DNA of 64,000 nucleotides from the IMG/VR virus record IMGVR_UViG_3300025848_000001, positions 1-64,000 of that record; one strand, written 5' to 3'. How positions within the stretch are numbered: the stretch's first letter is position 1; each line of letters begins with the position of its first letter. Made by a program: the position numbers and the translations under genes. Shown piece after piece: positions 3,196 to 42,887 of the stretch. The notes below the pieces were generated by a model, which saw only the letters and a program-made list of their open reading frames with translations, did no database searches and was not told where the DNA came from. The stretch comes from a virus. Taxonomy: Duplodnaviria > Caudoviricetes.

Positions 3196-3216
3196 TAACT
3201 CTCCGCCTTTCGACTA

Positions 3217-3885
3217 CTACCAAGTTACATCGCTAGATGTAGATGGTTCTTCTTCTTCATGTCCGCCTTCTCCATTAAAGAAAGCTTCTTGATTCGCATA
3301 AGGTAGGTCACGAATCGCTGTTTCCTCAAGCTTATGAAGCTCAAGCCCAGAGGCATCAAACTTAGCCTCATCTTTGGCTAGTGGGATAATTGTATAGCTA
3401 GTATCTGTTTTTGTTCCAGATCTTTTAATTCTCCACATAAGATTTGTAATTGAACCCATTTCTCCAGCGTATTCTATTAAAGTTGGAGTAACTGTTTTGC
3501 CACTTGATCCCTGTGAAAGAATAGCTACGTACGGATCTTCTTTGCCATCATCAACTAATACATTTATGTATAAACGTGAACGGCCTTTCCATCCTGCCTT
3601 ATAGTCTTTTCTATGTTGCTCGCAACCCCAGCACTTACCCTGATCTTCCATTGTGCAAAGAGCCTTGCGACGATAATCTTTTGGGTTTGTGTGTTCTACT
3701 GCAATAAATCCAAGACCCAATTTATCATTATAATCTGGTGAGTCTGGGTCTAGCTCCTGAAGAAATCTAATCTTTACGCTTTCTCCATCTTCGAGTTTAA
3801 CCCAACGTCCCTTACTTTCTGAACCACTTGTTGATTGTGGCTTATCTATTACCTTTTTTAAAGCTGCTAATCCTGTAGCTTTCAT
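3217..3885 (-). CDS. Single-stranded DNA-binding protein (gp32-like)
   Basis: KIRFL beta-strand motif, Cys cluster (C-x7-CWGC), acidic tail ending in an aromatic residue (EEEEPSTSSDVTW); lies between primase and polymerase. Confidence 0.75.
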   Translation of the reverse strand: MKATGLAALKKVIDKPQSTSGSESKGRWVKLEDGESVKIRFLQELDPDSPDYNDKLGLGFIAVEHTNPKDYRRKALCTMEDQGKCWGCEQHRKDYKAGWKGRSRLYINVLVDDGKEDPYVAILSQGSSGKTVTPTLIEYAGEMGSITNLMWRIKRSGTKTDTSYTIIPLAKDEAKFDASGLELHKLEETAIRDLPYANQEAFFNGEGGHEEEEPSTSSDVTW

Positions 3886-13380: not shown

Positions 13381-15078
13381 CTATATTGTCCTGCATACTA
13401 CATCTGTAGAAAGGCCTTGCTGAAAAGTATGAGATACCTGTGTGACCACAAGGGTTTCAGTCCCAATAAAATTCTGATAAGCATATTTAATTGAAACTAT
13501 ATCTCCTATTTGTATTAATGGGTTTCCAAAAACTTTCATTTTTACTACTCTTCCTTTATTAATTATTTGTGTCTTTATCCAATCCCCCAAAGATTTAGCG
13601 TCCTCTAATCTTTGTACCCAGGTTGTTTCAAATACTACTGGTCTTTTTACAGCATAATCATTGTCCATTTTTGTTTCATATTCTAAAGTAGACGATTCAG
13701 TAATTGGATTTCCATATAAGAAAAAGTTTGCTGAATTACCATCAGCAAGAGGAGTAGTTGTTGAACTATTATTAATTGCCCAAACTTGAGATGAAAAATT
13801 ATTATAATCTTGTGAAAGAATAGATACTGCAGAATTTACTCCAGTATCCCACCCTATAGGGTAAGCTGGAATTTTATTAAATTGAACATCAAACTTTCTA
13901 ATCTCTCTAACAACAGTACCAAATTCATCAACAAAATTTTTTACATTGTTTGGTAATTCTCCTTCTTGAAATTTTAATTCTCCGAAAGCTGTTGATAATA
14001 AATCTTTAGAATATCTTCCATAATATTTATTTGTTATTGCAGAAACATCAGAAAACTTTTTTGCATCTATCTCTAAAGCATACACATAATCAAAATGAGC
14101 TTTTCCTCTTGTACAAAGAAGGGCAATTTTCTTAGTAGGCTCAACAATTTTAGTAACCTTCTTGGTCCCAGTGTCATACTTGCTCGTGTCTGAAGCAGAA
14201 AACTTTATTCCATTTATATAAGCATTCATTTCAATTGTTTTGCCTGAAACCTTTACTCTTATATCTACGTTATATATTTCTCCAGCAAATATTGAAACAT
14301 CTATTGTTTCTGCTAATGTCTCAACTCCGCTTTTACCTGTTACTAATTTTACCCATCTTAATGTTTTTCTAGATGTTTCGGCAGCTGATGCTGCTGTTTC
14401 CATGATAAGATAATATCCCTTATTTCCTCTTTCATCTGCAAAAAATCCTATTCCTGCTCCAGATTTACCATTATCTAAATCTGAAGCAAATCTAAAACTT
14501 GTTCCAAAAGAATAATATTTTTCTGAATATGACTGTACAGTATTTTTACCGCCAGGTAGTAATACGTCTGTGCTGGAGGGCAGAGTTATTGATTCAAAAG
14601 TTTTTGTTGCAAGTGTATTTTTTTTATCATCAGATTGTTTTGATGCAAGCGTTAAATACCCTTTATAAAAATTACTATTTATATCTTTTGGATCTGTAGA
14701 ATTTCCTAATAAGGATTGACCTGCTATTTCTTCATCCATAGTAAACGTTGGAGTTGTTAAAACCTGAGTTTCTTTATCTTGAGAAGCAAAATATGCAACA
14801 ATTTCTAATTTATACTTATTACCTTTTAATAAATTAGGAACTATAAATGTGGAAGATGTCGGGTCTGGATTTAGTGCAACTGGTGATGTTGCTGTCGTTA
14901 CATTTATAATATTTACTTTATAAAAAGACGGCTCTTCGTCCATGTTCATAGTTTCAATAGTTACTTCGACTGCATTATCAGATATTTGAATTATTTCAGG
15001 AGAATTTATAATAGATTTGTTTTCATCAACTCCAGCGTCGTTATCGAGCATGAATCCACCACTAAAAGCTAACACCAT
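13381..15078 (-). CDS. Minor tail protein (tail tip)
   Basis: FN3-like and lectin-like segments; C-terminal GNPLIQIGDIV hub-type motif. Confidence 0.7.
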   Translation of the reverse strand: MVLAFSGGFMLDNDAGVDENKSIINSPEIIQISDNAVEVTIETMNMDEEPSFYKVNIINVTTATSPVALNPDPTSSTFIVPNLLKGNKYKLEIVAYFASQDKETQVLTTPTFTMDEEIAGQSLLGNSTDPKDINSNFYKGYLTLASKQSDDKKNTLATKTFESITLPSSTDVLLPGGKNTVQSYSEKYYSFGTSFRFASDLDNGKSGAGIGFFADERGNKGYYLIMETAASAAETSRKTLRWVKLVTGKSGVETLAETIDVSIFAGEIYNVDIRVKVSGKTIEMNAYINGIKFSASDTSKYDTGTKKVTKIVEPTKKIALLCTRGKAHFDYVYALEIDAKKFSDVSAITNKYYGRYSKDLLSTAFGELKFQEGELPNNVKNFVDEFGTVVREIRKFDVQFNKIPAYPIGWDTGVNSAVSILSQDYNNFSSQVWAINNSSTTTPLADGNSANFFLYGNPITESSTLEYETKMDNDYAVKRPVVFETTWVQRLEDAKSLGDWIKTQIINKGRVVKMKVFGNPLIQIGDIVSIKYAYQNFIGTETLVVTQVSHTFQQGLSTDVVCRTI

Positions 15079-17138
15079 TATGCCCAGGAAGCCCTATAGG
15101 CCTTCCATCCCCCTCCCGTAAAAGCCTCGCTAGTTTTAACATGGGCTGCTGGAGTGGTGCCTAAAGCACCCCTCTGTTTAATCCTTAATTTATTACTAGG
15201 TCCAAAAGTTACATTTAAAATACCTGTCGATGGATCGTATTGTCTGCTTTCTGCTAGTGCTTGGTACTTTGCAACATCAGATTCAGATTCAATCCAAACA
15301 TATTCTACCTTTTTATTTAGCTTATTAACTAATTTATATTGAACAGCATCATATTCTATAATTTCAGAATTAATTACTAAATATCCTGAATAAGAAAATG
15401 GAGAAAATATATTATTGTATTCTGTCATTTGATCTATTTGAATTTCTAGACCTTCGCCTGCTGCTGGACTAGAGGCTGTGGTTTCGGATAACAGAGCCCC
15501 TGCAGCAAGATAACTAACTGGAGAAGAATACAATGCTTCTGAAGATCCTATTAAATTAGAATTAAATGGGCTATTATAAATAACCTTAACCTGATTAGCG
15601 CTTGGTATTTCTTTGTGGCTAAAAGATGCTATGTTAGGAAGAGTTGTTCCGTCTTTATCATATGTAAATGTAAATGATTTTTCTTTTGTATTATCATATA
15701 TATAGTTTCTACTTGATATTAATAATGTTCCATACTCATCAAAAAAAGCGTTCATCTGTGTATCATTACATATTTCTTGAATTGATTCCCAAACGCTTTT
15801 TCTTCCGTCTGACCACCAATAATTAATTAATGGAATTGAATTATCTGACTTTACATTTGTTCCAAGAACTGGGTCAATCTGTTCTTTAATATTAAAATAA
15901 TAATTAGTAAATCCTACGGAATCTAAAAGCCCAGTAATTACTCCCGTTGCTGGATAAGACTCGTATAGTCTTTCTGGAGCTATTGATTCCATTAAAAATT
16001 TTGCATAATCAAATGCTTGTATATTTACAGAACCGTACCCAGATATCTCCCATGAATCTATATAAAATATTCCCTGCTGAACTACATCATAATTTGATGT
16101 TACAGTTACTGCATTACTGTGATAAATTTTAAAATAAGTTTTAATTTCTGCTTTTGCAACCATATAAATGATATCTGGATTAATAGAGGCGTCTTCAAAA
16201 TTATAATTTTTAATTTGCAAAGTAGCACTATTCATAGAATTATCTTCATATCTGGCTAAATCTAAAACCATTGAATTGGCAGAAACTTTTCCTACTGGCA
16301 ATATATCTTCTGAATTTGCGGATGCTTCTTTTTTAATTTGCATTGAAACTATATCTTCAGATATATCTTTTACAAGTCTTCCAGAAATTTCTATTAATCC
16401 TATTATTTTATCAGACTGATTAGTTGCTGTAACTCTAATTTTTTCTACTTCTAGTGGGTTAGCATATTTAAATTCTGTGCCATCGCTGTTGGAATAAACA
16501 TCATTTGAATTTCTTTCCCATGCATCTACAGTTTTATCTACATAATGCAAAATTAATTTTCCGTTAGTAATATCTGTATAAGTACCTACTAAACTTTCTT
16601 GTTGATTTTTTAATTTTATATACACACTACAACTAGACGGGACATAATGAAATTTTTCAAATGTAACAATTATTTTATTTATAAATGCTGTTTTAGTAGA
16701 ATTTGAATTAACATAATTAACAGACACATCTAAATTTTTACCAATTGGAGTAACAAAATATTTATATTCATTTGTATCACCTGCATAGTATACCCTTGGC
16801 ATATCACTTGGATACTCGTATACCCTTAATGTAGAATAATTATTATACGGAGAAGTAGAATCTGGATATTCAGATTGTGTTGCAATGTAATATTTAATTC
16901 CACCAATTTGTGGTCTAAACGGTTTCACGATTGAGTCTACTGGAAATAGTTTTTTAAAAGGATTAATTTTTATTGTAGGTGTAACTTGAGAAATATAATC
17001 ATTATCATTTGCAGTAGTAGTTACTGTTAAATTTTCTAATAATGAATTCATATTATATTCTATTCTTGCGCCTGGCTTGGCAATAATAGAAGATTGTTGT
17101 TTAAATAAATTAGTTAAGTTTGAGGATATATTTAACAT
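15078..17138 (-). CDS. Minor tail protein (baseplate hub-like)
   Basis: GIFYIDSW, AFFDEYGTL hub-type motifs; follows the distal tail gene. Confidence 0.7.
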   Translation of the reverse strand: MLNISSNLTNLFKQQSSIIAKPGARIEYNMNSLLENLTVTTTANDNDYISQVTPTIKINPFKKLFPVDSIVKPFRPQIGGIKYYIATQSEYPDSTSPYNNYSTLRVYEYPSDMPRVYYAGDTNEYKYFVTPIGKNLDVSVNYVNSNSTKTAFINKIIVTFEKFHYVPSSCSVYIKLKNQQESLVGTYTDITNGKLILHYVDKTVDAWERNSNDVYSNSDGTEFKYANPLEVEKIRVTATNQSDKIIGLIEISGRLVKDISEDIVSMQIKKEASANSEDILPVGKVSANSMVLDLARYEDNSMNSATLQIKNYNFEDASINPDIIYMVAKAEIKTYFKIYHSNAVTVTSNYDVVQQGIFYIDSWEISGYGSVNIQAFDYAKFLMESIAPERLYESYPATGVITGLLDSVGFTNYYFNIKEQIDPVLGTNVKSDNSIPLINYWWSDGRKSVWESIQEICNDTQMNAFFDEYGTLLISSRNYIYDNTKEKSFTFTYDKDGTTLPNIASFSHKEIPSANQVKVIYNSPFNSNLIGSSEALYSSPVSYLAAGALLSETTASSPAAGEGLEIQIDQMTEYNNIFSPFSYSGYLVINSEIIEYDAVQYKLVNKLNKKVEYVWIESESDVAKYQALAESRQYDPSTGILNVTFGPSNKLRIKQRGALGTTPAAHVKTSEAFTGGGWKAYRASWA

Positions 17139-17614
17139 TATACCTCTTCCATACTAAAGGAGACATTCCAGAAAGCGTTTACTCCTCGCTTAACTAATTG
17201 AAAACTACAATTTGTAAATGATACAGTATATTCTTCTTCATTAGTAGTACCATAATCTTTTGAACCGCCTTTTGCAAAATTTAATCTAATTTTAAAAGTT
17301 GATTTTCCTGAAGTGCTTTTATAAAATTCTCTTAAATCTTCCGCTCCCCACTTACCATCGGCTGTTTGAACCCTGTATGACGGGAGCATTGTCCAAGAAA
17401 CGTTAAACATTTTTTTATCATTTACATAAAATTTTCTTAATGTTCCATTTGCCATTCTTTGAGTTTCTTCAATTCTCAAAGAAGATACATCTACTTCTGA
17501 CCTATTATGATCAGATAATTCTATCCATGTTTCGGAAGTAAGTGCGGGGGTAGCAAGAGGGTCTTTTGCATATACTCTTATTAAATTACCCTTTGGTAAT
17601 GTTATAATTGTCAT
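17138..17614 (-). CDS. Distal tail protein-like
   Basis: Directly after the tape measure; RMANGTLRKFYV motif. Confidence 0.65.
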   Translation of the reverse strand: MTIITLPKGNLIRVYAKDPLATPALTSETWIELSDHNRSEVDVSSLRIEETQRMANGTLRKFYVNDKKMFNVSWTMLPSYRVQTADGKWGAEDLREFYKSTSGKSTFKIRLNFAKGGSKDYGTTNEEEYTVSFTNCSFQLVKRGVNAFWNVSFSMEEV

Positions 17615-20600
17615 TAAGCACCTACTCCTAAACTGATATTACTATTTGATGCACTTTTTTCAAAAGACATTAAAGATTTAAATTCTTCAAATACCTGTCT
17701 TCCATTTTTAACTGGTTCAGTAAATGTCATTTGAACAGAACCAATATTTATATTTTTATTATTGGTTGAAGTAGTATTCATTGTACCATTTCTTAAAGCA
17801 TTTACATAGTCTGTATCATAAACGCCTTCTCTTCCAGCCTGCAATATAGCAGACACTTCTGATCCATAAGCACCAGGTATTGGGCCATTCCAATCATGGA
17901 ATTTTCTTATTTGACCAGCGTAGCCACCTTTAGCCATTTTTGGAATTAATAAAGATTGACCTAAAGCTTCTTCTGCTCTTTTTATTATATCAAGCCAAAG
18001 AGTAGTTCCACCTTGCTCTAAATTATATTTAGAATGTCCTGGCATTGCTGTCATGAGTGGAGATGAAAGTTTTATTGATCTTCCAGAATCAGAATCTTTC
18101 ATTATCTGCATTAATGCTCTTATTTCATTTTCACTTAAAACAGATTTTAATCTTTCTACTGCTTCTGGAGATACTTTTCCTTTTGAAGGCATTAATGCTG
18201 TTTTATAAAAATCATACATTCTTAAATATCTTTGAGGGCCGCCTTGTCCATTCCATCCTAAACCAATTCTTGTTGCTGACCTTAAGCTATCTATGGTTGC
18301 TGGATTAAATACATTTGCATATTCCTCCATCATTCCGCCCATTCCTATTGGAGTTGGAAATGCTTCTGCTGGAATATCCGCCCTGTAGAGTCCTCCATAC
18401 TGTTTACCCGCAAGATTAGTTCTTGTCAAACCTAAGTTTCTTAAATATGAAGCAGCCATTCTTGAATTTAATGACCAGTAGCCACCTAGCTCATGTGCTA
18501 TGTTTGTGCTAAAAATTTGTTCTGGAGTAAGAGATGGATCTGACATCATCATTCCACTTACATAATTATCATAATTCCATGGAGCTCTAACGGCCCTAAA
18601 CATTGCTAACGGCTGTGAAGCGCTTAATCCATGTGCTTGAAGATATGCAGCATTTGCAGCTTTAATAAAATCTGAAGGTTTATCTATTTGAGAAGCAGAT
18701 GGGCCAGAAAAATCAAATCCCTCCCCTTTCCATCTACTTGTTGCATTTTCTGCATTTCCTACTATGGATTTAAAGAAATCGTCTTTGCTCATTCCTTCAA
18801 CAACTGGGTTTTTTGATGAAACTAAAATATCATAAGCTTTGCCCCAATATTTTCTAAAAGCTGCTCCAATGTCTGAAGATTCATCAAACATAGACGTAGA
18901 TAACTTTAATGAGTCAGTAGAAGAAATACTTGGAACAGCTCTTCCAGAACTAATTGCTGACTCAACTATTGCTTTACGCAAGTTTCTCATTATAGTTGTA
19001 CTTGCCTTAGTAGAACTAATTGCTGTAGACCCTGTAGCAGCTGTAACGCCTAGTTTTGCTAATGCTCCTGTACCAACAAAATTGAGTGGGAATAATGCTG
19101 CAGATAAGGTATCTCCCTTTCTTCCCTGACCAGCAACTTTTCTTAATAATGACTTAAGTCCTAGTGGATCTGCTGACATCCATGAAGTAAATTTACTACT
19201 ATTTAATAATGATTGTGCTTCATCTTGTGATTTTGTTAGACTATTAACATACTTTTGGAACCAATTTAATTTTTTAGCTGGGACTTGATTACGCATTCCC
19301 TTTTCATGTGGAGCTCCACCATCTTTAAATCCTAAATATCCACCTTGATTAAACATTAATGGGCCAAGACCGTATGCACCATTTCCTATTCCACCCATAG
19401 AAGCTCCAGAACCAGCGTAGCGTTCTGGAGATTTATCCAAACCTAATCCAGGACCTCCATAAGGTTTCTTTGGCTGTTCAGCCATCTGATGCCAATAATC
19501 TGAAAATTGAGGAATGTTTCCAGTAAATTTAAGTCCTGGAATTTCTGTTCCACCCCAAGGATCTTTTCCGTCATTATTAAATATTGGCTTACCATATTTA
19601 TCAAATCCAATTGGTGATTGTTGATATAGTCTTTCTAATTCTCCCCAATATCTTCCATGCGGACTACCTATAGGCCTTCCGCTTCTTGTATATGGAACAC
19701 CTGGTTTACGATTATTTATTAAAGGATTTAAAGATCCACCTTCTTTAAATCCTAATGCAGAAAGTTTAGTAATCCCTGCAACTTTCATAGGAATTAAAGT
19801 ATTCATATTTAAATTTTGTTTATCTACAAAATCTGGAGAAGAAACTAAATTACTATAATTTGATCTAGCCTCGTCAGGTCCTGAGTATTTTGATCCAACT
19901 ACATCAATATAATCTTTACCAGTTGCTATCTTATATGCTCTGTAAGCCCAAAAATTTCTTGTATTTAATCTATAGTAATCTTTATGTGGTCTTTCATATT
20001 TAAGCATAAATAATTTAGTTGCTTCAGCAATACTATTTGTTTTATTCATTGCTTTTATAGTTGTGCCTTGACTTGGCATTTCATATATTAAAAAGTCTAT
20101 TTGATTTTCAAGACTGTATACGTCTTTTCTTCCATTTCGTTTTAGCCAAGCTAAATAGTTTTTCCATCTGGCATCAGCGCCCCATTGTGCTATACCTCTG
20201 CCTGCCCAAAATAATTTTCCAGTTTTAGGATGTCTATGTGGGGTTTCGTTAGATCTTGGATTTAAGGTAGATTCTGCTATTAAATTACCTACAATTCCAG
20301 ACGCCGCTTCTTTAGTGAGTCCTGCTGAAATTAATTTTTGCATTGAGTATGACATTCTGTCTTCAAGATTATTAAAATTATATGTAGGCTGTTTTATACC
20401 GCCAGTAGAACCTGCAGCATATTTACCAATAAATCCTCCTTGGGCAAAACCAAGAATATTTTTTGCAGCCATTATAACGCCATCTGAACCATATTTATTT
20501 ATTAAATCCATATTTGGGACAGTAACATCATCTACGGAGGCACCTCTTGTTATATACTCTTCATTAGAAACTTTAATTGGAGAAATTCCTCCATTTGATC

Positions 20601-23600
20601 CCATAACATAACCAGGAATTGAATCTGAAGTGCTAGTTCCTGGACCCTGAATTAATCCATTAAAAGTACCACCTAAATATTTTTTATAATAAAATACTCT
20701 ATTTGCTCCAGCTATATCTTCTTTAGAATAAACAATGATATCTGACTTAACTACTTTATTTGTTTCATCAACAAATATGTGATCTTTTACTACATCTCCA
20801 GGATTCAATCCTCTTGCATTATTTATAAATTTACTTGCTGGCTCTGTATATATTTGTTTGCCCTCTGGCGTTACTCCAAGTGACTGTCTGTCACCATTTC
20901 TTCCTTGAGGTACAGAAGTTGTTACTGGATCATTTTTGCCAGCTGGACCAGCTACTGGCACAACAGTTTCTTTTCCATCTGTTCCAGATGCTGTTCCAGT
21001 ATTAGTTTTTACTCCAGCGATTATTCCAAGAAGCCTAATCATTTCATCTTGTCTTACATTCATTCCACCAAATATATCTTTTAATGAACTTTCAAATTTA
21101 TTTGTAGTTCCATCTAACTCTGCTTGTAGTATTGGAGCAAGTGATTGAATTACTGGATCTTTAGATGCTTTCATATCTTCTATAGTTTTTCTTACTATAG
21201 ATTTTTCAATATCATCATATCCGCCTTCTTTCATCATAAATGCTTGAATTGCTTTATTTAGCATCTCCTGCATTGCTTGTACATTTTTTGTAGCTGCATC
21301 AGAAGTTTTTTGTAAATTATCATAATCTGTTTCAAGAGATTTTAATCTATCACGCAATGAATCAATTATGTCTTCTTGTGCAGAAACATCTTGATTTTCT
21401 TTATCACTTATAGATCTCTTAGCTAATTCTAATTGCTGTTGGCCAACAAGTCTTTGAATATCCAACTGAGCTTGTGCTGCTGTCTGCATATCTCCTGCAG
21501 CCATTGCATTATTATATTCAAGCTGTTTCTTTTTAATTTGAAGCAATACATCTTCATCTTGTTGTTCACGCTCTAAAGCTTGTCTTCTTTGATCAGCTTC
21601 TTCCTTAATAGATTCAATTATCTTTTGATGTTTTTCTATTTCGTCTTCTAGAGCTGCTTTTCTATCTTCATAAGTTTGTATAACTTTTTCATTAATTACT
21701 AATGTCTTTTTAGACTCTTCATTAATTTGTTTTACTAAAGCCTGGAAAGGATTAGATGAAGTATCTTCTCTAAATAGTGTATCTAACTTCATAAAAGCTA
21801 TTGATATTTTTTGTGCTTTTGCGGGATCTAAATTTGATAGATCCATTGATACTCCCATTGTATACAATCTTATCTTTGCATATACGCTAGCTAAACTTTC
21901 ATTTTTACCTAATATACTTTCTAATATAGGATTTTGATTTTTTAAATTATTTAACTGTTCATTTGTTAAATTAACAGAGCCTGCTTGTGAATTATTTATT
22001 CTCTCTAATTGAATTTGATAAGCTTCGGCTGCATCTACTGTTCCCCATTGATTTACTTTTAATCCTATAATTTTTTGCTCTGCATTTGATAAAGCATTAA
22101 ATAAAGTATCTAAACTGTCTCCTAGCTGATCCACATTTCCATTCTTAAGTAAATTAAAAAATGTGTTTAATGCCGAAGATGCAGCAGTAGCTTCATCTTT
22201 TATAGCTCTAAAACCTTCTGAAGCAATTGCTTTAACAGCATAAGCAGCTTTATTAGATTGTGATATTAAAGCATATATTATATTAGTAGCTTCTTGTGCT
22301 GACATTCCTCCCGCAACAAATTGGGCTTTTAATTGTTCGGCTTTTGCAGAAACTTCTGCTCCAGATGCTTTGTCAAACATTTTAATTAAATCTGGAAATT
22401 CTTGTTTAACTTTTGCCTGTAACTCTTTTAATTCTTTTATAGATACAGTTAACCCTGGAACACCAGCACTGGTATAACTTGAAAATAGCGCTCCGCCAGA
22501 TTCTTTTATTGCAGTCATTCTATCCTTAGCTGCTTTTAATGTATCGTTAAGAGAAGTAAATTTTAGATTTAATTTATCTACAGTATCTTGTGTTGGAGCA
22601 AATCCTTGATCAATAATTCTTCTATGCTCATTAATCATATCGTTTACTTTTTTAATAGCTAATCCGATACCAATTATTGCTGCACCAATTTTAATTGGGC
22701 CAGGAAGTCTCCACATCCACTGGAATGCTCTCTTAGCCAAAGAACCTTTTTCTGCGGCTTCCTTACTTGCTAAACCTATTTTTGACAATGCTTGATAAGC
22801 TGCTAGTTCTCCTAATATGCTTCCAGCAATTGCCCCAAATGTTCCACCAAGTTGTCCGCCAATCATCATTCCACCCATGCTGCCAACTACAGATGCTCCC
22901 ATCATTGCGCCAGTTCCCATTTGCTTAGCCATGCCAGGATTTGGTGCCATTATTACCTGACCATTAGTAGGTTGTGCATCAGTAGATGCAACATAGTAAG
23001 GACTTTGTCTTGGAGTTTCTCTCCAGGAACCTGGATTACCTTGCCATGTTGCAGCTTTTGGATTATTTGAGCCGTAATTTCTTCTGCTTCTTCTTACAAT
23101 TCCTCCACCACGATTATATTTAGGTACAGAATGAGCTGAATGATATTTAGACCAATTTACATTCATTCCTTCATCAAGTCTGCCTAGCATTGCTAAATAA
23201 GGGGCCCTGTCTGATTCTGGCAAAGACTCTATAAATTTAAGAAGCTTGGGCCTCATTTTTGTCATAGACGATTTCATTTTTGCACCGTATTGACGTGAAC
23301 TCATTGACGCAGCAATATCTTTTGTATTATGTGTAAAATCTTTTCTTGCTCCACCTCTAACTGCAAGTAAATTAATTAAAGCTTGTTGCTCCATCGAATG
23401 CATATTAGTGGCATGAGAAGTATTCATTGATGCTCTAGAAAAGACGCCTGCTGGCCCAACATCAGCTAATACATTTCCAAATACATTTGATTTTGATAAA
23501 TCTTTGTTACCAAAAAGTAAAGATGCTATTGTCTGCCTAATCATTTGATCTGGTGTAAATTTAGTTCCGCCTGTAGCAAACATTGGATTAAATGGAGATT

Positions 23601-26600
23601 CAAGTCCTAATAATTTTGATTTTCCAGTTGGGTCTAGAGGGTTTTTAATTGTTCTTATTATTTGTTCAGGAGAATCCAATCCAAAAACTTCTCTAGCCAT
23701 TCTAGTTCCATACATCTCTGCTTTTGCGGATATTTCATTTGGAACACCTTTAAAGAAAACTAATTCACCTTTATCGTTTTTATAAAGACCTGATACTCCA
23801 GGAATAGGAAAGCTTTTACCTGTACTTGGGGCTATCATATGACTATAATTAGCAGCTGGAGTGTCTGCAAAATTTCCTAAAGATTTTTTACTAGAAAGTA
23901 TTTTAGCCCACTCTAATACCTTTAGCATTTTTTCTGGAGACAATAATGAAATTGGATTTCCATATCCCATTCTTCCACGAACTATAGACCCTCCAGGAAT
24001 TAAACCGCCTTCATTTAATCTAGCATCTACAAATGAAGTTCTTGGCATTAAATTAAATCTTGGGTTATTAAGTAAAGATAAGAATTGTAAGAATGATCTA
24101 TTTCCTACAGCACCCCTACTTATTGATTTACGTAATTCATCCATGCTGCCTACACCAGAAGTTTTTGTAGCCCAGTTTATTAAAGATTTTGCGTGTGGGT
24201 TATCAAATGCTACAAAGTTACCCCACAATTTTCTATTTCTAGTTTCTCCAAGTTGTGAGTGAAGCCAATTGATATCGGATTCCCCTGCCATTGCTTGTAA
24301 ATAATTTCCTCTTGCGCTATATCCCCAAGAACCACTACTTGAAGTTTTACCAGAAATATCTCTTGGAGACATGTGCTCTGAAGCAAATTTATTTTTTGTT
24401 TTATCTCTTAATAAATCAAGAAGATCTTTTTCATTTGCAGCATTTAAATGTTCTGTATCTAATCCAAATACTGAACTATATATTCTATCAACTTCTCCAG
24501 ATTTTAATCTAGCGACTACATCTGGATCATTTGCTAATTCTCTTAATAAACTGATAGAGCCTGTATCTATTTGAGAAGCATGCAAATTCATTGTGCCTGC
24601 TCCTACGCCAATAAGATTCTTTGACAATCCTAGTTTACTTAATTTAGCTTGTCTTGCTTTTACTATTCTCAAAGCTTCTTTTTTAAATTTAGCTCTATTT
24701 ACTCTTCCAGATGTCTTGGATGTAGATAGCCTATATGCATTCTCTACATCTTCATGAGCCATCTTTACCGCTTCTTTTGGATCTACTCCAATAGACACTA
24801 GCGCTGAAGCAGCATTTATTTTCATTCTAAACTTAGCTTCTTCTGTCCAATCTGCAGATACATCATATCTATTTGCTATTGCTGCTCTTGATTTATAATC
24901 ATCCCAATTACCGTAATTGCCTATGCCTCTCATAATTTGCCCGCCCAAATTATATCCATTATTTGCAGCATCTACGATTGCATAAAGCTCTGGCATTTTT
25001 GATATTTTAGGACCAAACACAATTTCACCAGGAGTTAGGGCTGCTGTAATTTTTCCGCCGTCTTCATATGTATACGGTGCCATTGCTACTATATCAGCAT
25101 AATCTGGATTTTGAGCAGCCTCTTGATTTAATACATATCCACCAACTGGAATAGATCCTAGCCTATCGTCATAATTAATTGATGTATCTCCAGACACTAC
25201 AGTTTTTCCTGGACCAAATGATTCGACTCCGCCACCCGTATTAAATCTTGGCAATCTTGTAGTTTGTATACTATATGGAGCACCAAATGTTCTTATACCC
25301 CTTAATCTTCCAAACTCTTCCATTACTGCTTTGTTGGCATCTTTTTTATATAAATCTCTTAGTGTAAATTGTCCTGAAGCATCAACAACTGGCTGATCCA
25401 TTAATGGGGCTTTTGTAAAATCAATTGTTCTTCCTCTTGACGCAGCAAATGCTGAAACTTCAGATCTCATCATCATATCAATTTCAGCATTTAATGCCAT
25501 AATTCTGGTTATTGCTTGTTCTGTTGTTATCTTTGCAGCCATTAAATCATCAACAATTAATGCAGATTCAGTTGCAGCTTTTTGTGTAAATTTTTGAGTT
25601 ATTGGTAAAATGTCGTCAAATGTTTGTAGTAAATCAGTGCTTACTGTTCCACCTAATGCTATTGTTTTCTTTAATGCTGCAACCTCTGCTTCTGTTTGCA
25701 TTCCTAAAGTTGCCATTAGCGCATGGAATTTAGCAGCTTCTGGAGCAACAATTCCAGTAGACACTCCCTTTATTGAAGTAACTCCTTCTATGTTTGGCAA
25801 ACGATCCGTCATGTATATCTGAGGAGTTCTACCTATTTTTTGATTTACTGGAGTGGCTCCTGGAACACCACCAAATATTGAAGCAGGGTTATTTGGATCA
25901 CGTGGATTAATATGAGACATTGAACGTGTATCTATATCACCAACTAATGGGTTAGTAGGGTCTACTTCTCTTATTCCTCCAGCAACTACCAATCTTCCGC
26001 CAGTTGTTGTTACAGAAGGAGTTACCCCTGGGCTTACTGGAACAACGCCATTAATCATTGCTCTTTCAAGACTTGCATAATCATTTATTAATTTTTGTAA
26101 TGCAGTATGCAATACACCTGCAGCTGTTGCGTCTGAATAAAATGCTTTTTCTACAAGATTAGCTGCTTTTTCTGCAGCAATCATTTCTGGTGTAAGCATC
26201 TTCCAACCCTTTGTTCCTTGGAAGAATGACTTCATTAAAACAATGCCCTTTGTTATATAGCCAAAGAAGTTAGCAAGAACACCAGTTATCATAATTAATG
26301 GTCCAGCAATTGCTGTTATAGCACCAAATCCAGCTATAAATTTTTTAATTGGATCTGGTAATCCGCTTACAAAATCAACAATCTTTTCAAATATATTTAA
26401 TATTTTTGTTCCAAAATTTAAAAAGTTATCTCCTATACCAGCAAGGCTTGCCTTTAACGATTCTACTGCTCTCTTAAATTTACCTGAAGCTGATTCTGTA
26501 ACTAATGTTAATTCTCGTCCTGCAACTGAAGCTAGCTCTGAAGCGCTAGCATTCATTAAATTCATAACCTGTAATGTCTGGCTTCCCTCTTTACCTAAGT

Positions 26601-27951
26601 TATTAAATAATGCAGCCATTCTTGCAAATTGGAATTTTCCAAACATTTGCTCTAATGCTCTTGCTTTACTTAAAGGATCCAAACCATCTAAAGCTTTTTG
26701 CAATCCCAATATCATTCCTGTTGTGTTGCCAGTGTTTTGAGCAACTAAGCCCATTATGTCTATTCCAAAATCAGACATTACAGCAACTGTTTGTTTTGTA
26801 GGATTAATCATAGATGCAAGACCAGATTTTAGTGCGTTAGCTGCTTCTGATGCATTAACGCCGCCTTCTCGCATAGCGGTTAAATATAAAGCTAAATCTT
26901 CTACGCTTCCACCTAATTGCTTAACTACGGTTCCTGCTTTTGGAATAGCCTCAACCAAATCGTTAAGCGTTGTGGATGTTTGGTTTTCAACTGCGTTTAA
27001 AAAGTTAATTGATTCGGTTAGTTCTTGTGTATTAGATTTAAAAGCAGTTTGTATCGCAAGAGTAGCCTTCATTGCTTCTTGCCTATCTACTTCACCTAAT
27101 ACTGATAATCTTGTTGTTTCTTTAACTGAAGCTAATAGGTCATTACCAGTTTTACCTGTTGCAGCAATATCAGCTGCTAAAGCTAGAGTGTCTTTAAAAC
27201 TTACTCCCATTGTTTGAGATAATTCTTTTGCAGTTTCAGTTACATCTTTTCTTATTTTATCTAATTGCTGTGATGAAGACCCAGATATATCTCCATAGAC
27301 CTTGACTAATCTTGTTAATTCCTGATCTGCTTCTCTAAATGCTTTTGCTGCCTGTGTTCCAAACATTGCTAACGGGACTGTTAATCCAACCGTTAACTGA
27401 CGGCCAGCCCATTGAGTATTTTTACCCCAGTTGATTAACTGAGTAGATCCTTCTAGTAAAGCCTTGTTCATAATCTGCAATTCCATTCTTGCTAATTGAG
27501 ATTTATTTTTAACTAAATCTAAACCTCTTGGAACTGCAACATTAAATTGCATTAGACCTTGAGCATTTCTACCCAATGGCTGCAATACTGCATTTTGTAA
27601 CATAACTTGCTCTCTAGCAAGTTCTCTAATTAATCCTTTTGATGTCTTTGCATGCTGTTGAAATGTACTGAAATAATCTCTTAATTTTAATCTTCCGCCA
27701 TCTAAATTTTTACCAAACTTATCTACATCTGATTGTAAATTAACAAAGTGGCTTGAAAACAAGCCACTTTGTGTTAAAGTATCTCTAAATGCATTATTGG
27801 CAACTTTTGTAGATGCTGCAATTGATTTATTAGATGCAAGTAATTCTCTTTGTAATTTTTGTAGACTAGCAGTAACCCTATGTACTTCTGATACAAGGTT
27901 TGATAAGTCAGCCTTGGCGACTATACTCGTTACAATTTGCTCGTCAGCCAC
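17614..27951 (-). CDS. Tape measure protein (3445 aa) with embedded enzyme-like cassettes
   Basis: N-terminal TP901-type TMP core, TM-like Gly/Ala segments, GPGTSTSDSIP motif; downstream of the frameshifted chaperone. Confidence 0.95.
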   Translation of the reverse strand: MADEQIVTSIVAKADLSNLVSEVHRVTASLQKLQRELLASNKSIAASTKVANNAFRDTLTQSGLFSSHFVNLQSDVDKFGKNLDGGRLKLRDYFSTFQQHAKTSKGLIRELAREQVMLQNAVLQPLGRNAQGLMQFNVAVPRGLDLVKNKSQLARMELQIMNKALLEGSTQLINWGKNTQWAGRQLTVGLTVPLAMFGTQAAKAFREADQELTRLVKVYGDISGSSSQQLDKIRKDVTETAKELSQTMGVSFKDTLALAADIAATGKTGNDLLASVKETTRLSVLGEVDRQEAMKATLAIQTAFKSNTQELTESINFLNAVENQTSTTLNDLVEAIPKAGTVVKQLGGSVEDLALYLTAMREGGVNASEAANALKSGLASMINPTKQTVAVMSDFGIDIMGLVAQNTGNTTGMILGLQKALDGLDPLSKARALEQMFGKFQFARMAALFNNLGKEGSQTLQVMNLMNASASELASVAGRELTLVTESASGKFKRAVESLKASLAGIGDNFLNFGTKILNIFEKIVDFVSGLPDPIKKFIAGFGAITAIAGPLIMITGVLANFFGYITKGIVLMKSFFQGTKGWKMLTPEMIAAEKAANLVEKAFYSDATAAGVLHTALQKLINDYASLERAMINGVVPVSPGVTPSVTTTGGRLVVAGGIREVDPTNPLVGDIDTRSMSHINPRDPNNPASIFGGVPGATPVNQKIGRTPQIYMTDRLPNIEGVTSIKGVSTGIVAPEAAKFHALMATLGMQTEAEVAALKKTIALGGTVSTDLLQTFDDILPITQKFTQKAATESALIVDDLMAAKITTEQAITRIMALNAEIDMMMRSEVSAFAASRGRTIDFTKAPLMDQPVVDASGQFTLRDLYKKDANKAVMEEFGRLRGIRTFGAPYSIQTTRLPRFNTGGGVESFGPGKTVVSGDTSINYDDRLGSIPVGGYVLNQEAAQNPDYADIVAMAPYTYEDGGKITAALTPGEIVFGPKISKMPELYAIVDAANNGYNLGGQIMRGIGNYGNWDDYKSRAAIANRYDVSADWTEEAKFRMKINAASALVSIGVDPKEAVKMAHEDVENAYRLSTSKTSGRVNRAKFKKEALRIVKARQAKLSKLGLSKNLIGVGAGTMNLHASQIDTGSISLLRELANDPDVVARLKSGEVDRIYSSVFGLDTEHLNAANEKDLLDLLRDKTKNKFASEHMSPRDISGKTSSSGSWGYSARGNYLQAMAGESDINWLHSQLGETRNRKLWGNFVAFDNPHAKSLINWATKTSGVGSMDELRKSISRGAVGNRSFLQFLSLLNNPRFNLMPRTSFVDARLNEGGLIPGGSIVRGRMGYGNPISLLSPEKMLKVLEWAKILSSKKSLGNFADTPAANYSHMIAPSTGKSFPIPGVSGLYKNDKGELVFFKGVPNEISAKAEMYGTRMAREVFGLDSPEQIIRTIKNPLDPTGKSKLLGLESPFNPMFATGGTKFTPDQMIRQTIASLLFGNKDLSKSNVFGNVLADVGPAGVFSRASMNTSHATNMHSMEQQALINLLAVRGGARKDFTHNTKDIAASMSSRQYGAKMKSSMTKMRPKLLKFIESLPESDRAPYLAMLGRLDEGMNVNWSKYHSAHSVPKYNRGGGIVRRSRRNYGSNNPKAATWQGNPGSWRETPRQSPYYVASTDAQPTNGQVIMAPNPGMAKQMGTGAMMGASVVGSMGGMMIGGQLGGTFGAIAGSILGELAAYQALSKIGLASKEAAEKGSLAKRAFQWMWRLPGPIKIGAAIIGIGLAIKKVNDMINEHRRIIDQGFAPTQDTVDKLNLKFTSLNDTLKAAKDRMTAIKESGGALFSSYTSAGVPGLTVSIKELKELQAKVKQEFPDLIKMFDKASGAEVSAKAEQLKAQFVAGGMSAQEATNIIYALISQSNKAAYAVKAIASEGFRAIKDEATAASSALNTFFNLLKNGNVDQLGDSLDTLFNALSNAEQKIIGLKVNQWGTVDAAEAYQIQLERINNSQAGSVNLTNEQLNNLKNQNPILESILGKNESLASVYAKIRLYTMGVSMDLSNLDPAKAQKISIAFMKLDTLFREDTSSNPFQALVKQINEESKKTLVINEKVIQTYEDRKAALEDEIEKHQKIIESIKEEADQRRQALEREQQDEDVLLQIKKKQLEYNNAMAAGDMQTAAQAQLDIQRLVGQQQLELAKRSISDKENQDVSAQEDIIDSLRDRLKSLETDYDNLQKTSDAATKNVQAMQEMLNKAIQAFMMKEGGYDDIEKSIVRKTIEDMKASKDPVIQSLAPILQAELDGTTNKFESSLKDIFGGMNVRQDEMIRLLGIIAGVKTNTGTASGTDGKETVVPVAGPAGKNDPVTTSVPQGRNGDRQSLGVTPEGKQIYTEPASKFINNARGLNPGDVVKDHIFVDETNKVVKSDIIVYSKEDIAGANRVFYYKKYLGGTFNGLIQGPGTSTSDSIPGYVMGSNGGISPIKVSNEEYITRGASVDDVTVPNMDLINKYGSDGVIMAAKNILGFAQGGFIGKYAAGSTGGIKQPTYNFNNLEDRMSYSMQKLISAGLTKEAASGIVGNLIAESTLNPRSNETPHRHPKTGKLFWAGRGIAQWGADARWKNYLAWLKRNGRKDVYSLENQIDFLIYEMPSQGTTIKAMNKTNSIAEATKLFMLKYERPHKDYYRLNTRNFWAYRAYKIATGKDYIDVVGSKYSGPDEARSNYSNLVSSPDFVDKQNLNMNTLIPMKVAGITKLSALGFKEGGSLNPLINNRKPGVPYTRSGRPIGSPHGRYWGELERLYQQSPIGFDKYGKPIFNNDGKDPWGGTEIPGLKFTGNIPQFSDYWHQMAEQPKKPYGGPGLGLDKSPERYAGSGASMGGIGNGAYGLGPLMFNQGGYLGFKDGGAPHEKGMRNQVPAKKLNWFQKYVNSLTKSQDEAQSLLNSSKFTSWMSADPLGLKSLLRKVAGQGRKGDTLSAALFPLNFVGTGALAKLGVTAATGSTAISSTKASTTIMRNLRKAIVESAISSGRAVPSISSTDSLKLSTSMFDESSDIGAAFRKYWGKAYDILVSSKNPVVEGMSKDDFFKSIVGNAENATSRWKGEGFDFSGPSASQIDKPSDFIKAANAAYLQAHGLSASQPLAMFRAVRAPWNYDNYVSGMMMSDPSLTPEQIFSTNIAHELGGYWSLNSRMAASYLRNLGLTRTNLAGKQYGGLYRADIPAEAFPTPIGMGGMMEEYANVFNPATIDSLRSATRIGLGWNGQGGPQRYLRMYDFYKTALMPSKGKVSPEAVERLKSVLSENEIRALMQIMKDSDSGRSIKLSSPLMTAMPGHSKYNLEQGGTTLWLDIIKRAEEALGQSLLIPKMAKGGYAGQIRKFHDWNGPIPGAYGSEVSAILQAGREGVYDTDYVNALRNGTMNTTSTNNKNINIGSVQMTFTEPVKNGRQVFEEFKSLMSFEKSASNSNISLGVGA

Positions 27952-27954
27952 TAA

Positions 27955-28326
27955 TTACTCCTTAGAGTATCCTAATCCCATTCCGATTCCAAATCCAGCT
28001 TCGCTTGCAAACGAACCCTGTAATGATACTACATCATCACCAGATGCGTTTATTCCTAAAGCCCTTCTTCGAACATCGTCGAAACTAGAACCCTCCTTTT
28101 CTTTTTTATCATCTCTAAGGTCTACTCCCTGTAAAGATGCTAAAAATATTCTATTTTCTTCTTCAGCTTTTTGTTTTGATTTCAGAGTCTGAAGAATCTC
28201 TGGCATTGATAGATTGCTTTCTATTTCGTCATAATTCTTCCAGTTTCCTAGAAGAAATAACTCTCCTAATAAAGCGGCAAGATCTAGTTCTGACCAGCCA
28301 GAACCGCTGCCGCCATCAGGTTTGGG
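27955..28326 (-). CDS. Tail assembly chaperone, -1 frame extension (gpGT-like)
   Basis: The -1 frame is open from the slippery site: PDGGSGSGWSELDLAALLGELFLLGNWKNYDEIESNLS then MPEILQ... (track ORF 27955..28206). Confidence 0.85.
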   Translation of the reverse strand, partial: PKPDGGSGSGWSELDLAALLGELFLLGNWKNYDEIESNLSMPEILQTLKSKQKAEEENRIFLASLQGVDLRDDKKEKEGSSFDDVRRRALGINASGDDVVSLQGSFASEAGFGIGMGLGYSKE

Positions 28327-28616
28327 TCGTCCATCTTAATTCCTCCACAAACTTCTAGAATGCGGTTAATTGTTGGAACATCCAAAGCATCTTCTAATGC
28401 GTCCCTATCTTTTACAAGATCTGGAAGTTGTTTTTCTAAAGCAACAGCGCATGCATCAATTAAAATTGTTAACGTCTCATCTTCATTTTGGACATCTGCT
28501 GTTTTTTGAATTACTGTCATGAACTTTCTCAACTCTTTAATTGTGAGTGGCTTTAGAATAGCTTTACTGCCATTCTGAAGTTCAATTTCTTCTATGTCGT
28601 ATACTTTTGTAGCCAA
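28284..28616 (-). CDS. Tail assembly chaperone (gpG-like)
   Basis: Between major tail protein and TMP; LKPLTIKELRKF; slippery heptamer near the 3' end. Confidence 0.85.
   Translation of the reverse strand: MATKVYDIEEIELQNGSKAILKPLTIKELRKFMTVIQKTADVQNEDETLTILIDACAVALEKQLPDLVKDRDALEDALDVPTINRILEVCGGIKMDDPNLMAAAVLAGQN
28320..28326 (-). other. Programmed -1 ribosomal frameshift site C CCA AAC
   Basis: XXXYYYZ heptamer in the correct phase (gaC CCA AAC) with an open -1 frame. Confidence 0.85.
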
Positions 28617-28726: not shown

Positions 28727-29407
28727 TTATGCCCAAGCACGGTCAATAATTAAACCGTATTCTTGACCGACCTTTGAAGCATCTGGAAGAAGACGGAATG
28801 TTACTGGGAACGTAGTTGGAGTTGTACGAGCCAAAGAGAACTGTGACTGTTGTACAGAAAGAACACGACGTGCATAATATACACGCTCTGTCTTTGGAGA
28901 AGCTGTTGTTGGAGCTTGTCCAACTGCAATTAGCTGACGCTCTGTTGGAGCCTCACCTAGTGATCCACCCGCAAGTGCGAGAACATCATTTCCACTTTGT
29001 GTTCCTGAAGATGGTGATGTCAAGGTGTCTGATCCCTGTCCAAATACAACTAGAACGTTTTCTAATGTACCTTCGGACATTTCTGTTGCGATCATAACCT
29101 CCATCGCAGACTTGAACAGCTTAGCTGTATCAAGTAACTGGTCAACCGTTACAGAATCATATGTTGGGTTATAAGTGATCTGAAGACCATTGTTAGTAAA
29201 ACCAACGTTTCTGTAATAGAATGCACCACTGTCTACACCATTAAGTGTTTCTGTATAAGATTTTGATGTCTCATATGCAGCTGCATCTGCTGTACCTGGT
29301 TCTGCGTTTTCCTTGTATGCTGATCCTTCTGTAATATCAATGTTTGAAATAAACAATGGGGAAGCACCAACGAGAATATTTTTAGCATTACCTGCTGATT
29401 GTGCCAT
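28727..29407 (-). CDS. Major tail protein
   Basis: NILVGA...VGFTNNGLQITY...VDQ...FPVTFRLL tail-tube pattern; strong AGGAGG RBS; downstream terminator. Confidence 0.85.
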   Translation of the reverse strand: MAQSAGNAKNILVGASPLFISNIDITEGSAYKENAEPGTADAAAYETSKSYTETLNGVDSGAFYYRNVGFTNNGLQITYNPTYDSVTVDQLLDTAKLFKSAMEVMIATEMSEGTLENVLVVFGQGSDTLTSPSSGTQSGNDVLALAGGSLGEAPTERQLIAVGQAPTTASPKTERVYYARRVLSVQQSQFSLARTTPTTFPVTFRLLPDASKVGQEYGLIIDRAWA

Positions 29408-32711: not shown

Positions 32712-33746
32712 TTAGGAAGCAACCTTAACGTTCTTAACAACGACCCAAGCATCTGCTTGTTCAATTTGAGCTCCAACACGAGTATACATTGTATATTCGA
32801 TAGAGTCCTTCTTTGGCCAGAAGAAACGATAGACAGTGACATCACGCTTGATACCAATAACAACGTTATTTGGGAATGTCAAGTGGATATCGCCCTGATC
32901 TGAATCAGCGCCCTGAGTTTCCTTAAGCAAAGGAACTTCAACAATCGGAATACCGAATGCGAATGGAGCTGTGAATCCTGCTGGGCCACCAAGACCTGCT
33001 GTATCGCCACGGATAATGCTTGCTGCAATATCTTGTGGGTTTACGTTCTGGATATTTTGTGATGTTGAATACAAATAATCCTGAATTAGGTTTGATCCAG
33101 AAAGGAAGCGAAGGTCTGGACGACGTTGCTTGTACTTTCTTGGAAGTGCCTTGAGGGCATTATTGAAGACTTCACGGGAGATGTTAGCGCCATCGGCGTC
33201 AACAACGTGACCGTTTGCCTTTGCAATCTTTACAATGCCATCAAAAGCTTTGTATAGATTGTCAGATGAGAGAGATGTATCACCATTAAGAACTACATCT
33301 TCAAGATCATTACCAGCCTGTGTTGCCATCAGACGTGCAATGTGGTCTTCTAGATCGGCACCTTCGATATTGTCTTCGAGAGACTCTGTTGAAAGTTCCC
33401 AATCAAGACGTAGCTTCTTGGTTGTAAGAGAGATCTTTGAGAATTGTACGGCAGCGTTTGTGCCAGTATTCTCAGCTTCAGAAGCAAGCTTCATAAGCTT
33501 CTCACCTACGCCAATACGATCAATCTCAGTCGTATCAGCTCGCATGCGAACTGTACGTGCTAATTTACCGACTACTGTTGCATCGAACATGTAATCGAGG
33601 AATCGTGCAGACTGCTCTGGATTTAGTAGACCGCCTTTACCTTCGGATCCAACGTGGATACCGTCGGTGGGATCTGCTGCTCCAACCATGCTACCTGTCA
33701 TGGTAGTATCGGCTGCTGCTGCTTTAGCTAATAGTTCATTACTCAT
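32712..33746 (-). CDS. Major capsid protein (HK97 fold)
   Basis: GGLLNPEQ, LSTESLEDNIEG, VLNGD, FGIPIVEVP motifs; after protease/scaffold; codon usage visibly more C-ending. Confidence 0.93.
   Translation of the reverse strand: MSNELLAKAAAADTTMTGSMVGAADPTDGIHVGSEGKGGLLNPEQSARFLDYMFDATVVGKLARTVRMRADTTEIDRIGVGEKLMKLASEAENTGTNAAVQFSKISLTTKKLRLDWELSTESLEDNIEGADLEDHIARLMATQAGNDLEDVVLNGDTSLSSDNLYKAFDGIVKIAKANGHVVDADGANISREVFNNALKALPRKYKQRRPDLRFLSGSNLIQDYLYSTSQNIQNVNPQDIAASIIRGDTAGLGGPAGFTAPFAFGIPIVEVPLLKETQGADSDQGDIHLTFPNNVVIGIKRDVTVYRFFWPKKDSIEYTMYTRVGAQIEQADAWVVVKNVKVAS

Positions 33747-41198: not shown

Positions 41199-42887
<1,689 letters not shown>

Follow-up and report, generated by a model that had tools for sequence, protein, structure and literature searches.

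A giant siphophage tape measure protein with exchangeable cassettes bounded by a recurrent Gly-Gly motif

The locus and its tape measure gene

The DNA analysed here is a window of 64,000 nucleotides (positions 1 to 64,000) of the IMG/VR virus record IMGVR_UViG_3300025848_000001 (Duplodnaviria; Caudoviricetes). The source record has 119,837 bp (~119.8 kb), carries direct terminal repeats and is rated complete; the phage, which is uncultured, is a complete siphophage with direct terminal repeats. From ~1 to 60.5 kb all the large open reading frames (ORFs) lie on the minus strand, and one of them encodes a tape measure protein (TMP) in which a short motif, [FYLM]xxGG, recurs about ten times and bounds a series of cassettes. 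The motif is conserved in the relatives of this protein, and the points at which the relatives exchange segments coincide with it clearly more often than expected by chance.

The ORF encodes a TMP, as an earlier note made from the sequence alone had proposed, and it is of the PhageMin_Tail/TP901 type. PF10145 (PhageMin_Tail) matches aa 239-438 with an E of 3.8e-29 and 102 bits against a cut-off of 33, and 15 tape-measure families of PHROG match with E down to 1e-113, all but one within the first ~800 residues. The gene order agrees as well, since the Ig-bearing major tail protein, two small ORFs, the TMP and the tail-tip proteins of 158 and 686 aa follow one another in the same order in the Streptomyces phage Muntaha. 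Residues 1-640 are 31-34% identical to the TMPs of 125-134-kb Streptomyces phages, in which the genes stand in the same order. The two small ORFs are presumably a tail assembly chaperone pair, given their position and the annotation of the syntenic Muntaha genes as chaperone. At 0.15 nm per residue the 3,445 aa predict a tail of about 517 nm. Pfam found only two families in the TMP, PF10145 and PF18013.

Of 8,000 candidates scored in a word-indexed search, 1,035 were relatives at E ≤ 0.001, and the best 120 were examined. These listed relatives are 2,477-4,576 aa long, all metagenomic, and come from contigs of up to about 117 kb. The protein P0002, found in other samples, is 95% identical to the TMP and of equal length, indicating that the reading frame is real. 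No cultured phage was matched by a near-identity DNA search or by tblastn with aa 901-1700, and cultured relatives were reached only through aa 1-640. The features of the TMP and its neighbours are collected in Table 1.

Table 1. Segments and motif copies of the tape measure gene, and neighbouring genes, by window position (aa, amino acid positions in the TMP; AF2, AlphaFold2; pLDDT, predicted local distance difference test; junctions, exchange junctions)
Feature	aa	Window	Strand	Remarks
TMP gene	1-3445	17614-27951	-	single uninterrupted ORF, 3,445 codons, GTG start (P0001)
N-terminal TMP core	1-640	26032-27951	-	PF10145; one hydrophobic helix aa 537-566 (Kyte-Doolittle); kept in 120/120 listed relatives
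Conserved segment between core and first junction	641-902	25246-26031	-	present in 120/120 listed relatives
First junction module	903-1004	24940-25245	-	three motif copies, two IP-x-L...GE-x-V-type boxes
FNTGG	903	25231-25245	-	
YEDGG	962	25054-25068	-	
YNLGG	1000	24940-24954	-	
Cassette B, helical	1005-1311	24019-24939	-	AF2 helices, pLDDT 45-75
LNEGG delimiter	1312	24004-24018	-	followed by LIPGG and conserved I-V-R...Y-G box; invariant GG/YG; junctions aa 1303-1333
Cassette C, probable HipA/CtkA/PI3-4-kinase-like fold	1317-1611	23119-24003	-	Foldseek, Atlas neighbours, conserved residues
YNRGG delimiter	1612	23104-23118	-	conserved I-V-R...N-Y-G box; opens linker of pLDDT <50; junctions aa 1604-1627
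Linker and second ruler section	1617-2426	20674-23103	-	basic/Pro linker, Gly/Met-rich stretch, long Ala/Glu/Leu/Lys/Gln-rich part (composition)
Second junction module	2427-2506	20434-20673	-	GG box, G-P-G-T-S-T-S-D-S-I-P box, E-E-Y-I box, helix, FAQGG
FAQGG	2502	20434-20448	-	
Cassette E, phage tail lysozyme	2507-2734	19750-20433	-	PF18013 (Phage_lysozyme2) aa 2532-2674, E 8.7e-25, 88 bits against cut-off 28.2
FKEGG delimiter	2735	19735-19749	-	pLDDT <50; junctions aa 2732-2742
Cassette F, Gly/Pro-rich	2740-2866	19354-19734	-	19% Gly, 12% Pro; predicted disordered
FNQGG/FKDGG double delimiter	2867 and 2875	19315-19353	-	pLDDT <50; junctions aa 2870-2887
Cassette G	2880-3338	17938-19314	-	folded α/β core ~aa 2976-3240, pLDDT up to 96
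MAKGG delimiter	3339	17923-17937	-	107 aa from C-terminus; followed by G-x-x-G-S-E-V box; pLDDT <50; junctions aa 3335-3342
C-terminal piece	3344-3445	17617-17922	-	conserved; terminal helix aa 3417-3436, AF2 pLDDT 50-58
Portal		35161-36741		structural module
Head maturation protease		33765-35105		structural module
Major capsid protein		32712-33746		structural module; adaptor next in gene order
Ig-bearing major tail protein		28727-29407		structural module
Two small ORFs upstream of TMP		28284-28616 and 27955-28206	-	110 aa and 83 aa; PHROG 10504 and 10474, function unknown
Tail-tip genes downstream of TMP		15078-17614	-	158 aa, distal-tail-like (PHROG 1194); 686 aa, minor tail protein (PHROG 10359)

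The motif and the segments it delimits

All ten motif copies that the earlier note had counted are present. The loose pattern [FYLM]xxGG occurs 17 times in the TMP against 5.4 ± 2.2 expected from 2,000 shuffles (maximum 14), and the refined form [FYWLM]xxGGx[IVL] occurs 10 times against 1.1 ± 1.1 in the shuffles (maximum 6). The refined form retains eight of the ten delimiters and drops five of the seven other loose matches (aa 360, 1317, 1458, 1695, 1878, 2240, and 3311), which are not delimiters; the one at aa 360 lies within PF10145. The motif is retained across more than 100 metagenomic relatives, and 1,220 unique contexts in 121 members of the family give a consensus with G/K/R at -1, F/Y/L/M at 0, N/A at +1, GG at +3/+4 and I/V at +6. 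In the form [G/K/R]-[F/Y/L/M]-[N/A]-x-G-G-x-[I/V/L], this delimiter brackets every cassette, and at three places a box of the type IPA-x-L-x-x-GE-x-V extends it. Neither the GG pairs nor a YG that lies 9-14 residues downstream vary in any of the 27 aligned relatives, although the surroundings do, as is typical of a functional short linear motif.

The internal delimiters (aa 1000-1030, 1312-1335, and 1612-1630; window positions 24862-24954, 23947-24018, and 23062-23118) share an I-[MV]-R-x3-4-[NG]-Y-G box right after the GG. As the C-terminal delimiters do not carry this box, there may be two classes of junction.

Two AF2 models, covering aa 880-1640 and aa 2725-3445 (721 residues), were built on shallow alignments (the folding alignment had 27 rows). 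In them the copies at aa 903, 1000, 1312, 1612, 2735, 2867/2875 and 3339 have pLDDT below 50 and lie between better-predicted parts, the copy at aa 1000 opening the next linker. According to this, all the delimiters covered by the models except that at aa 962 are in linkers predicted to be disordered, so that the proposal that the motifs mark the boundaries of globular inserts holds for these copies and fails for the remaining one. FAQGG 2502 falls between the ranges of the two models and lies outside the Pfam lysozyme domain.

The segments between the motifs differ in character and conservation. The linker and second ruler section is conserved in 119-120 of the 120 listed relatives, at lower identity, and the family consensus of the second junction module is a GPGT-TSDSIPA-LS-GE-V box. 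The lysozyme insert expected from the first inspection of the sequence is cassette E, with a PF18013 match well above its cut-off, and the Pro/Gly-rich domain is cassette F, which AF2 predicts to be disordered.

Cassette C had been described as kinase-like, and several results point the same way. The top Foldseek match is CtkA of Helicobacter pylori (3akk; probability 1.0, E 4.5e-3, TMt 0.39), followed mostly by kinase-fold proteins, all below firm thresholds. The nearest named clusters in the protein-language-model Atlas are PI3_PI4_kinase, LepB_N and HipA_2, at 0.89-0.90. Furthermore, conservation among 27-55 relatives is 90% or more for Lys1401 in a strand, Glu1412 in a helix, a G-N-x-D-x4-N loop at aa 1482-1489 and Asp1497, whose roles were assigned by pattern and not by superposition. 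No Pfam kinase family matched at E ≤ 0.1, and phmmer found no sequence match in the PDB. The fold search, the language-model neighbours and the conserved catalytic loop lend moderate support to a HipA/CtkA-type kinase-like fold. A search for free-standing versions of cassette C returned four short proteins only, three of them on contigs of 1.3-5.5 kb and probably fragments. P0159 (169 aa, on a 28-kb contig) matches 42% of cassette C at 58% identity; it could represent a TMP that is split or frameshifted, or else a free-standing fragment.

The label 'ART-like', which had been proposed for cassette G, was dropped. Foldseek gave nothing at E < 0.7 and the best Z of a wide VIA-align search was 4.3, on other parts of the model and of no use as a match, the query in both cases being the whole 721-residue model, with which a single domain could be missed. 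At the position proposed as the Arg of strand 1, about half of the homologues have Arg and the others Lys. The Atlas gave weak leads to TNT and ART-PolyVal at 0.82, the latter carried by 12% of a cluster. A search of 1.84 billion representatives yielded just 34 relatives of cassette G, almost all of them parts of giant TMPs. At the slot of cassette G, P0004 (aa 2639-2674) and also P0003 and P0006 carry a GNAT-type R-x-x-G-x-A segment, where Acetyltransf_10 scores weakly (E 0.014, below the cut-off).

Exchange of cassettes among relatives

The idea that the TMP is built of cassettes with interchangeable inserts finds clear support in the relatives, which replace, delete, duplicate and re-order the segments. 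Residues 1 to ~2500 are common to nearly all the listed relatives. Directly after the FAQGG module, the coverage drops from ~100 to ~15 of the 120, with 49 high-scoring segment pairs (HSPs) ending at aa 2527, and the C-terminal third is therefore the main variable region. The cargo recognized by Pfam varies (lysozyme, OmpA-like, CHAP, LysM), the cassette E lysozyme being found in only about 11-17 of the listed relatives, and other relatives place CHAP with LysM, or lysozyme with OmpA, between their own motif copies.

The internal cassettes vary too. Cassette B is replaced by unrelated sequence in 13 of the 120, exactly between the copies at aa 1000 and 1312; in P0006, for example, an identity of 78% runs to aa 1014, ~280 unrelated residues follow and the homology is back at aa 1320, with motif copies of its own at both ends. 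Cassette C is missing or replaced in six of the 120 and is absent from P0042 and P0070. In P0010 its deletion runs from copy 1312 to copy 1612, with flanks that overlap in the motif, both of them aligning to the identical 48 residues. The last 105 residues, from aa 3335-3342 on, keep 65-79% identity behind different cassettes in P0004, P0006, P0007 and P0010. Cassette F, present in 27 relatives, has four different upstream and 12 different downstream neighbours, and in P0014 (aa 2673-2984) it is duplicated in tandem, both copies ending at the motif.

The same picture emerged from the counts. In an all-against-all comparison 40% of the internal HSP ends and 33% of the starts fell within [-10,+15] of a motif against 9% for random positions, and strict swap points (flanked in both proteins by 80 homologous residues on one side and by no homology on the other) were near a motif in 24% and 35% of cases against 9%; these counts, like those of the segments below, include related sequences repeatedly and are not independent events. 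In this TMP itself, the motif windows make up 9.6% of the length and contain seven of the 14 junction clusters (binomial P = 1.4e-4). When 121 proteins were cut at the refined motif, 870 segments of at least 40 aa were obtained, of which 825 belong to 41 clusters (≥70% reciprocal coverage), with up to 15 different neighbours per cluster and several ordinal positions. The alignment of related TMPs, which the earlier note had put forward as a check, places exchange at the motifs clearly more often than chance does (24-40% against 9%), but not there exclusively.

Processing of tape measures and the role of the motif

Single wall-degrading domains are a known feature of TMPs, and cleavage of the TMP is known from T5 and lambda. 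To our knowledge, the lambda cut site and both of the proteases have stayed unidentified for ~40 years, and the T5 site is disputed.

The tape measure of T5, pb2, is cut in assembled tails into pb2* and pb2C. Linares 2023 (PMC10038345) puts the cut after R1127 and Boulanger 2008 after V1148±1, the groups disagreeing (PMC11937520). Both mapped cuts fall in one element, PR|AEGG followed 11 residues on by GTEV|VTP, that is, 92 or 71 aa from the end. Like the TMP described here, pb2 is a siphophage TMP with a wall-active C-terminal part, and its x-A-x-G-G and G-x-x-G-T-E-V boxes, at 92 aa from the C-terminus, come in the same order and at much the same distance as in our MAKGG copy (107 aa), in the register of the x-[A/N]-x-G-G motif and GE-x-V-type box found here. 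The C-terminal helix of pb2 is anchored in the hub. In contrast to the TMP studied here, with its ten or so copies and its five cassettes, of which two are internal, pb2 has one copy and releases one small C-terminal fragment. Moreover, there is no detectable homology between both proteins beyond the motif, and PF24164 and PF24165 do not match here. The C-terminal piece is presumed to be a hub anchor by analogy with the T5, 80alpha and JBD30 structures; its terminal helix is predicted only at pLDDT 50-58, and PF24165, which describes the hub-anchored trimeric helix of T5, is among the models without a match. In T5 pb2 (L002:14122-17781), the annotated zinc-carboxypeptidase signature IPR000834 (aa 1128-1151) appears to coincide with the G-E-H-G-T-E-V-V-T-P box, which is part of the junction element common to TMPs without a peptidase. 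The 'metallopeptidase motif' of T5 may hence be a junction box and not a catalytic site.

Lambda gpH is converted into gpH* and gpHC by a cut in a Gly-rich region, the site and the protease being unknown (Tsui & Hendrix 1983; PMC12617516). In gpH, FATGG 733 and YATGG 778, which begin 121 and 76 aa before the C-terminus, flank a GE-F-V box directly after a Gly-rich hydrophobic stretch, in the region to which the fragment masses assign the cut. Cleavage at 733 would yield 79.8 and 12.5 kDa, to be compared with the published ~78 and ~14 kDa. In contrast to the TMP under study, gpH has no cargo cassettes or enzymes and belongs to another TMP family (PF06791 and PF09718). The junction element is not described by any curated model, as PF09718, the C-terminal family of lambda TMPs, is limited to gpH 627-701 and stops short of the motif. 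In the cultured 127.5-kb phage Muntaha, gp35 (L007:7064-13330), a TMP of 2,088 aa, is 34% identical to the present TMP over the N-terminal 620 aa and lies in the same gene order. It also has a terminal delimiter, placed after its peptidase: an M23 domain (H-x-H-F-E) is followed directly by LKVGG 84 aa from the end and an anchor of 60 aa. Muntaha may be a convenient phage in which to study processing by experiment. In box order and position the MAKGG copy thus matches T5, lambda and Muntaha. HK97 has a G-A-G variant only, followed by E-A-G-P-E-A-I-M-P. With this variant, and with SPP1 and TP901-1 lacking the element, we rejected the possibility that the motif is universal among TMPs.

Enzymes inside the ruler gene, presumed to be delivered at infection, have been found in mycobacteriophage TM4 (Rpf-like motif), phiCbK gp95 (CHAP), Muntaha gp35 (M23) and Thermus phage P23-45 gp96 (RNA polymerase), but each of these TMPs has one enzyme, N-terminal in the case of P23-45, and a repeated delimiter has not been described for them. 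Polyvalent proteins are long chains of shuffled conflict-type enzyme domains that are proposed to accompany the DNA into the host and to be cleaved into separate parts (Iyer et al. 2017, PMC5512222). They differ from the protein described here in being packaged in the head or delivered by conjugation, in not being tape measures and in typically having their own metallopeptidase; neither the polyvalent signature domains nor a processing peptidase of its own was found by Pfam in this TMP.

In our reading, the conserved two-part ruler (aa 1-902 and ~1690-2426) and the presumed C-terminal hub anchor (aa 3344-3445) form a frame into which the independent cassettes B, C, E, F and G are inserted. The motif probably arose by multiplication of the junction element of ordinary TMPs, which have one or two copies of it ~70-120 residues from the C-terminus, where T5 pb2 and lambda gpH are cleaved as the tail matures. 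The motifs may then act as processing or hinge signals at which the cargo would part from the ruler at tail completion or ejection. Once free, the wall-degrading cassette would attack the cell wall, and the cassette with the kinase-like fold would enter the cytoplasm before the DNA does. As a whole, motif-bounded cassettes with processing or hinge signals are the reading that we favour as moderately probable. Its components differ in strength. We hold the motif-bounded cassette architecture with high confidence. Arguing by analogy with T5, we give an even chance to cleavage of at least the last copy (aa 3339), and consider it rather doubtful that most copies are cut, as in a true polyprotein. 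The motifs as cleavage sites, which the earlier note suggested, are plausible but unproven.

Several points weigh against processing at the motifs and, in part, against their role as boundaries. About two-thirds of the strict swap points are away from any motif. The mean pLDDT of both AF2 models is only 54-56, a low overall confidence that goes with the shallow alignments, and within them YEDGG 962 sits inside a small α/β unit (aa 930-998, pLDDT 60-80), while the non-delimiter FATGG 1458 sits inside the kinase-like fold of cassette C. In T5 position 0 of the element is Arg and not an aromatic residue, the T5 cut is disputed, the lambda site is not known from the literature, and the element was not found in the TMPs of SPP1 and TP901-1. 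In virions of phiCbK the CHAP-bearing TMP forms the largest band, and the tail length calculated from the full-length protein agrees with the measured one. The paper on the 5,002-aa TMP of P23-45 with its fused RNA polymerase reports no cleavage (PMC10770324). Finally, no Gly-Gly-directed peptidase (Prok-JAB, C48, C39) was found in the genome, the downstream tail-tip genes gave no Pfam family and no peptidase domain, and the only protease seen in the genome is the head maturation protease.

Some of these observations speak for the motifs being assembly or structural signals only, at which the chain docks on the chaperone, the tube lumen or neighbouring TMP chains, or bends as at a hinge, the bulky cassettes being threaded in extended form and the TMP staying intact in the virion, perhaps with the exception of the last copy. 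An invariant short peptide in disordered linkers is the usual signature of a binding motif, and the lack of a dedicated protease (JAB, C48 and C39, or in the tail-tip genes), the phiCbK TMP as top virion band with a tail length matching its full length, and the P23-45 fusion, described without cleavage, are in line with it. However, the homologous T5 element holds the mapped cut under either published mapping, lambda gpH is cut in the same region, and docking alone does not explain why the motif stands on both sides of every cassette. We therefore take this explanation as a tentative alternative, with a chance of well under one half.

Less probable is that the motifs have no function in the protein and are recombination joints or generic glycine linkers, a short shared sequence that promotes or tolerates exchange. 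The endpoints of the swaps, deletions and duplications do coincide with the motif, and the flanks in P0010 align to the same 48 residues. Nevertheless, Gly, Phe/Tyr and Asn are encoded by different codons in the ten copies, which have no DNA repeat in common, so that selection acts on the peptide; the joints of the earlier note are thus not supported at the DNA level. Moreover, at the amino acid level more than 100 relatives, at 45-78% identity, keep the aromatic residue, the GG and the I/V at +6, and the motif is also kept in single-copy TMPs that show no cassette exchange. All of this makes such an explanation improbable. That the pattern arose by chance in a Gly-rich protein, or that several genes were fused in an assembly error, is refuted: the five-residue pattern is admittedly loose and has seven further matches, but the shuffles never reached the observed counts, the 95%-identical P0002 of the same length comes from other samples, there are more than 1,000 relatives, and the record is a complete genome with terminal repeats.

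A search of the available paper library found no paper on motif-bounded cassettes in TMPs, and the earlier note knew of no description either. Under the favoured reading, the element found at the T5 and lambda cuts that also bounds every swappable cassette in a family of TMPs of 2,500-4,600 aa would offer a concrete site for mutation and mass spectrometry. Release of the cassettes, if it occurs, would give siphophages another way of delivering ready-made enzymes in addition to the capsid, namely through the tail lumen. This would bear on host takeover, on the sensing of TMPs by defence systems and on the engineering of phage-borne cargo, and the phage family appears to be abundant in metagenomes, with its more than 1,000 relatives. 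On a wider and more speculative view, to which we give no better than an outside chance of about one in three at most, the aromatic-x-x-Gly-Gly motif could be a general maturation signal of TMPs, marking the lambda gpH cut and the true T5 site and read by a host factor or by the assembling tail. Giant TMPs would then have multiplied it, becoming polyproteins that release the kinase, wall hydrolases and other effectors ahead of the DNA, with cassettes exchanged as an arms-race toolkit.

Outside the TMP, some fibre genes were also observed, all on the minus strand. A collagen-like fibre protein (41199-42887) and a fibre/decoration-like protein of 1,027 aa (49833-52916) lie far upstream of the tail module, past the head genes. 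A tail fibre protein of 966 aa (window 9120-12020) has a C-terminal Peptidase_S74 intramolecular chaperone domain (aa 864-920, E 5.4e-5), so that this fibre is a self-cleaving one.

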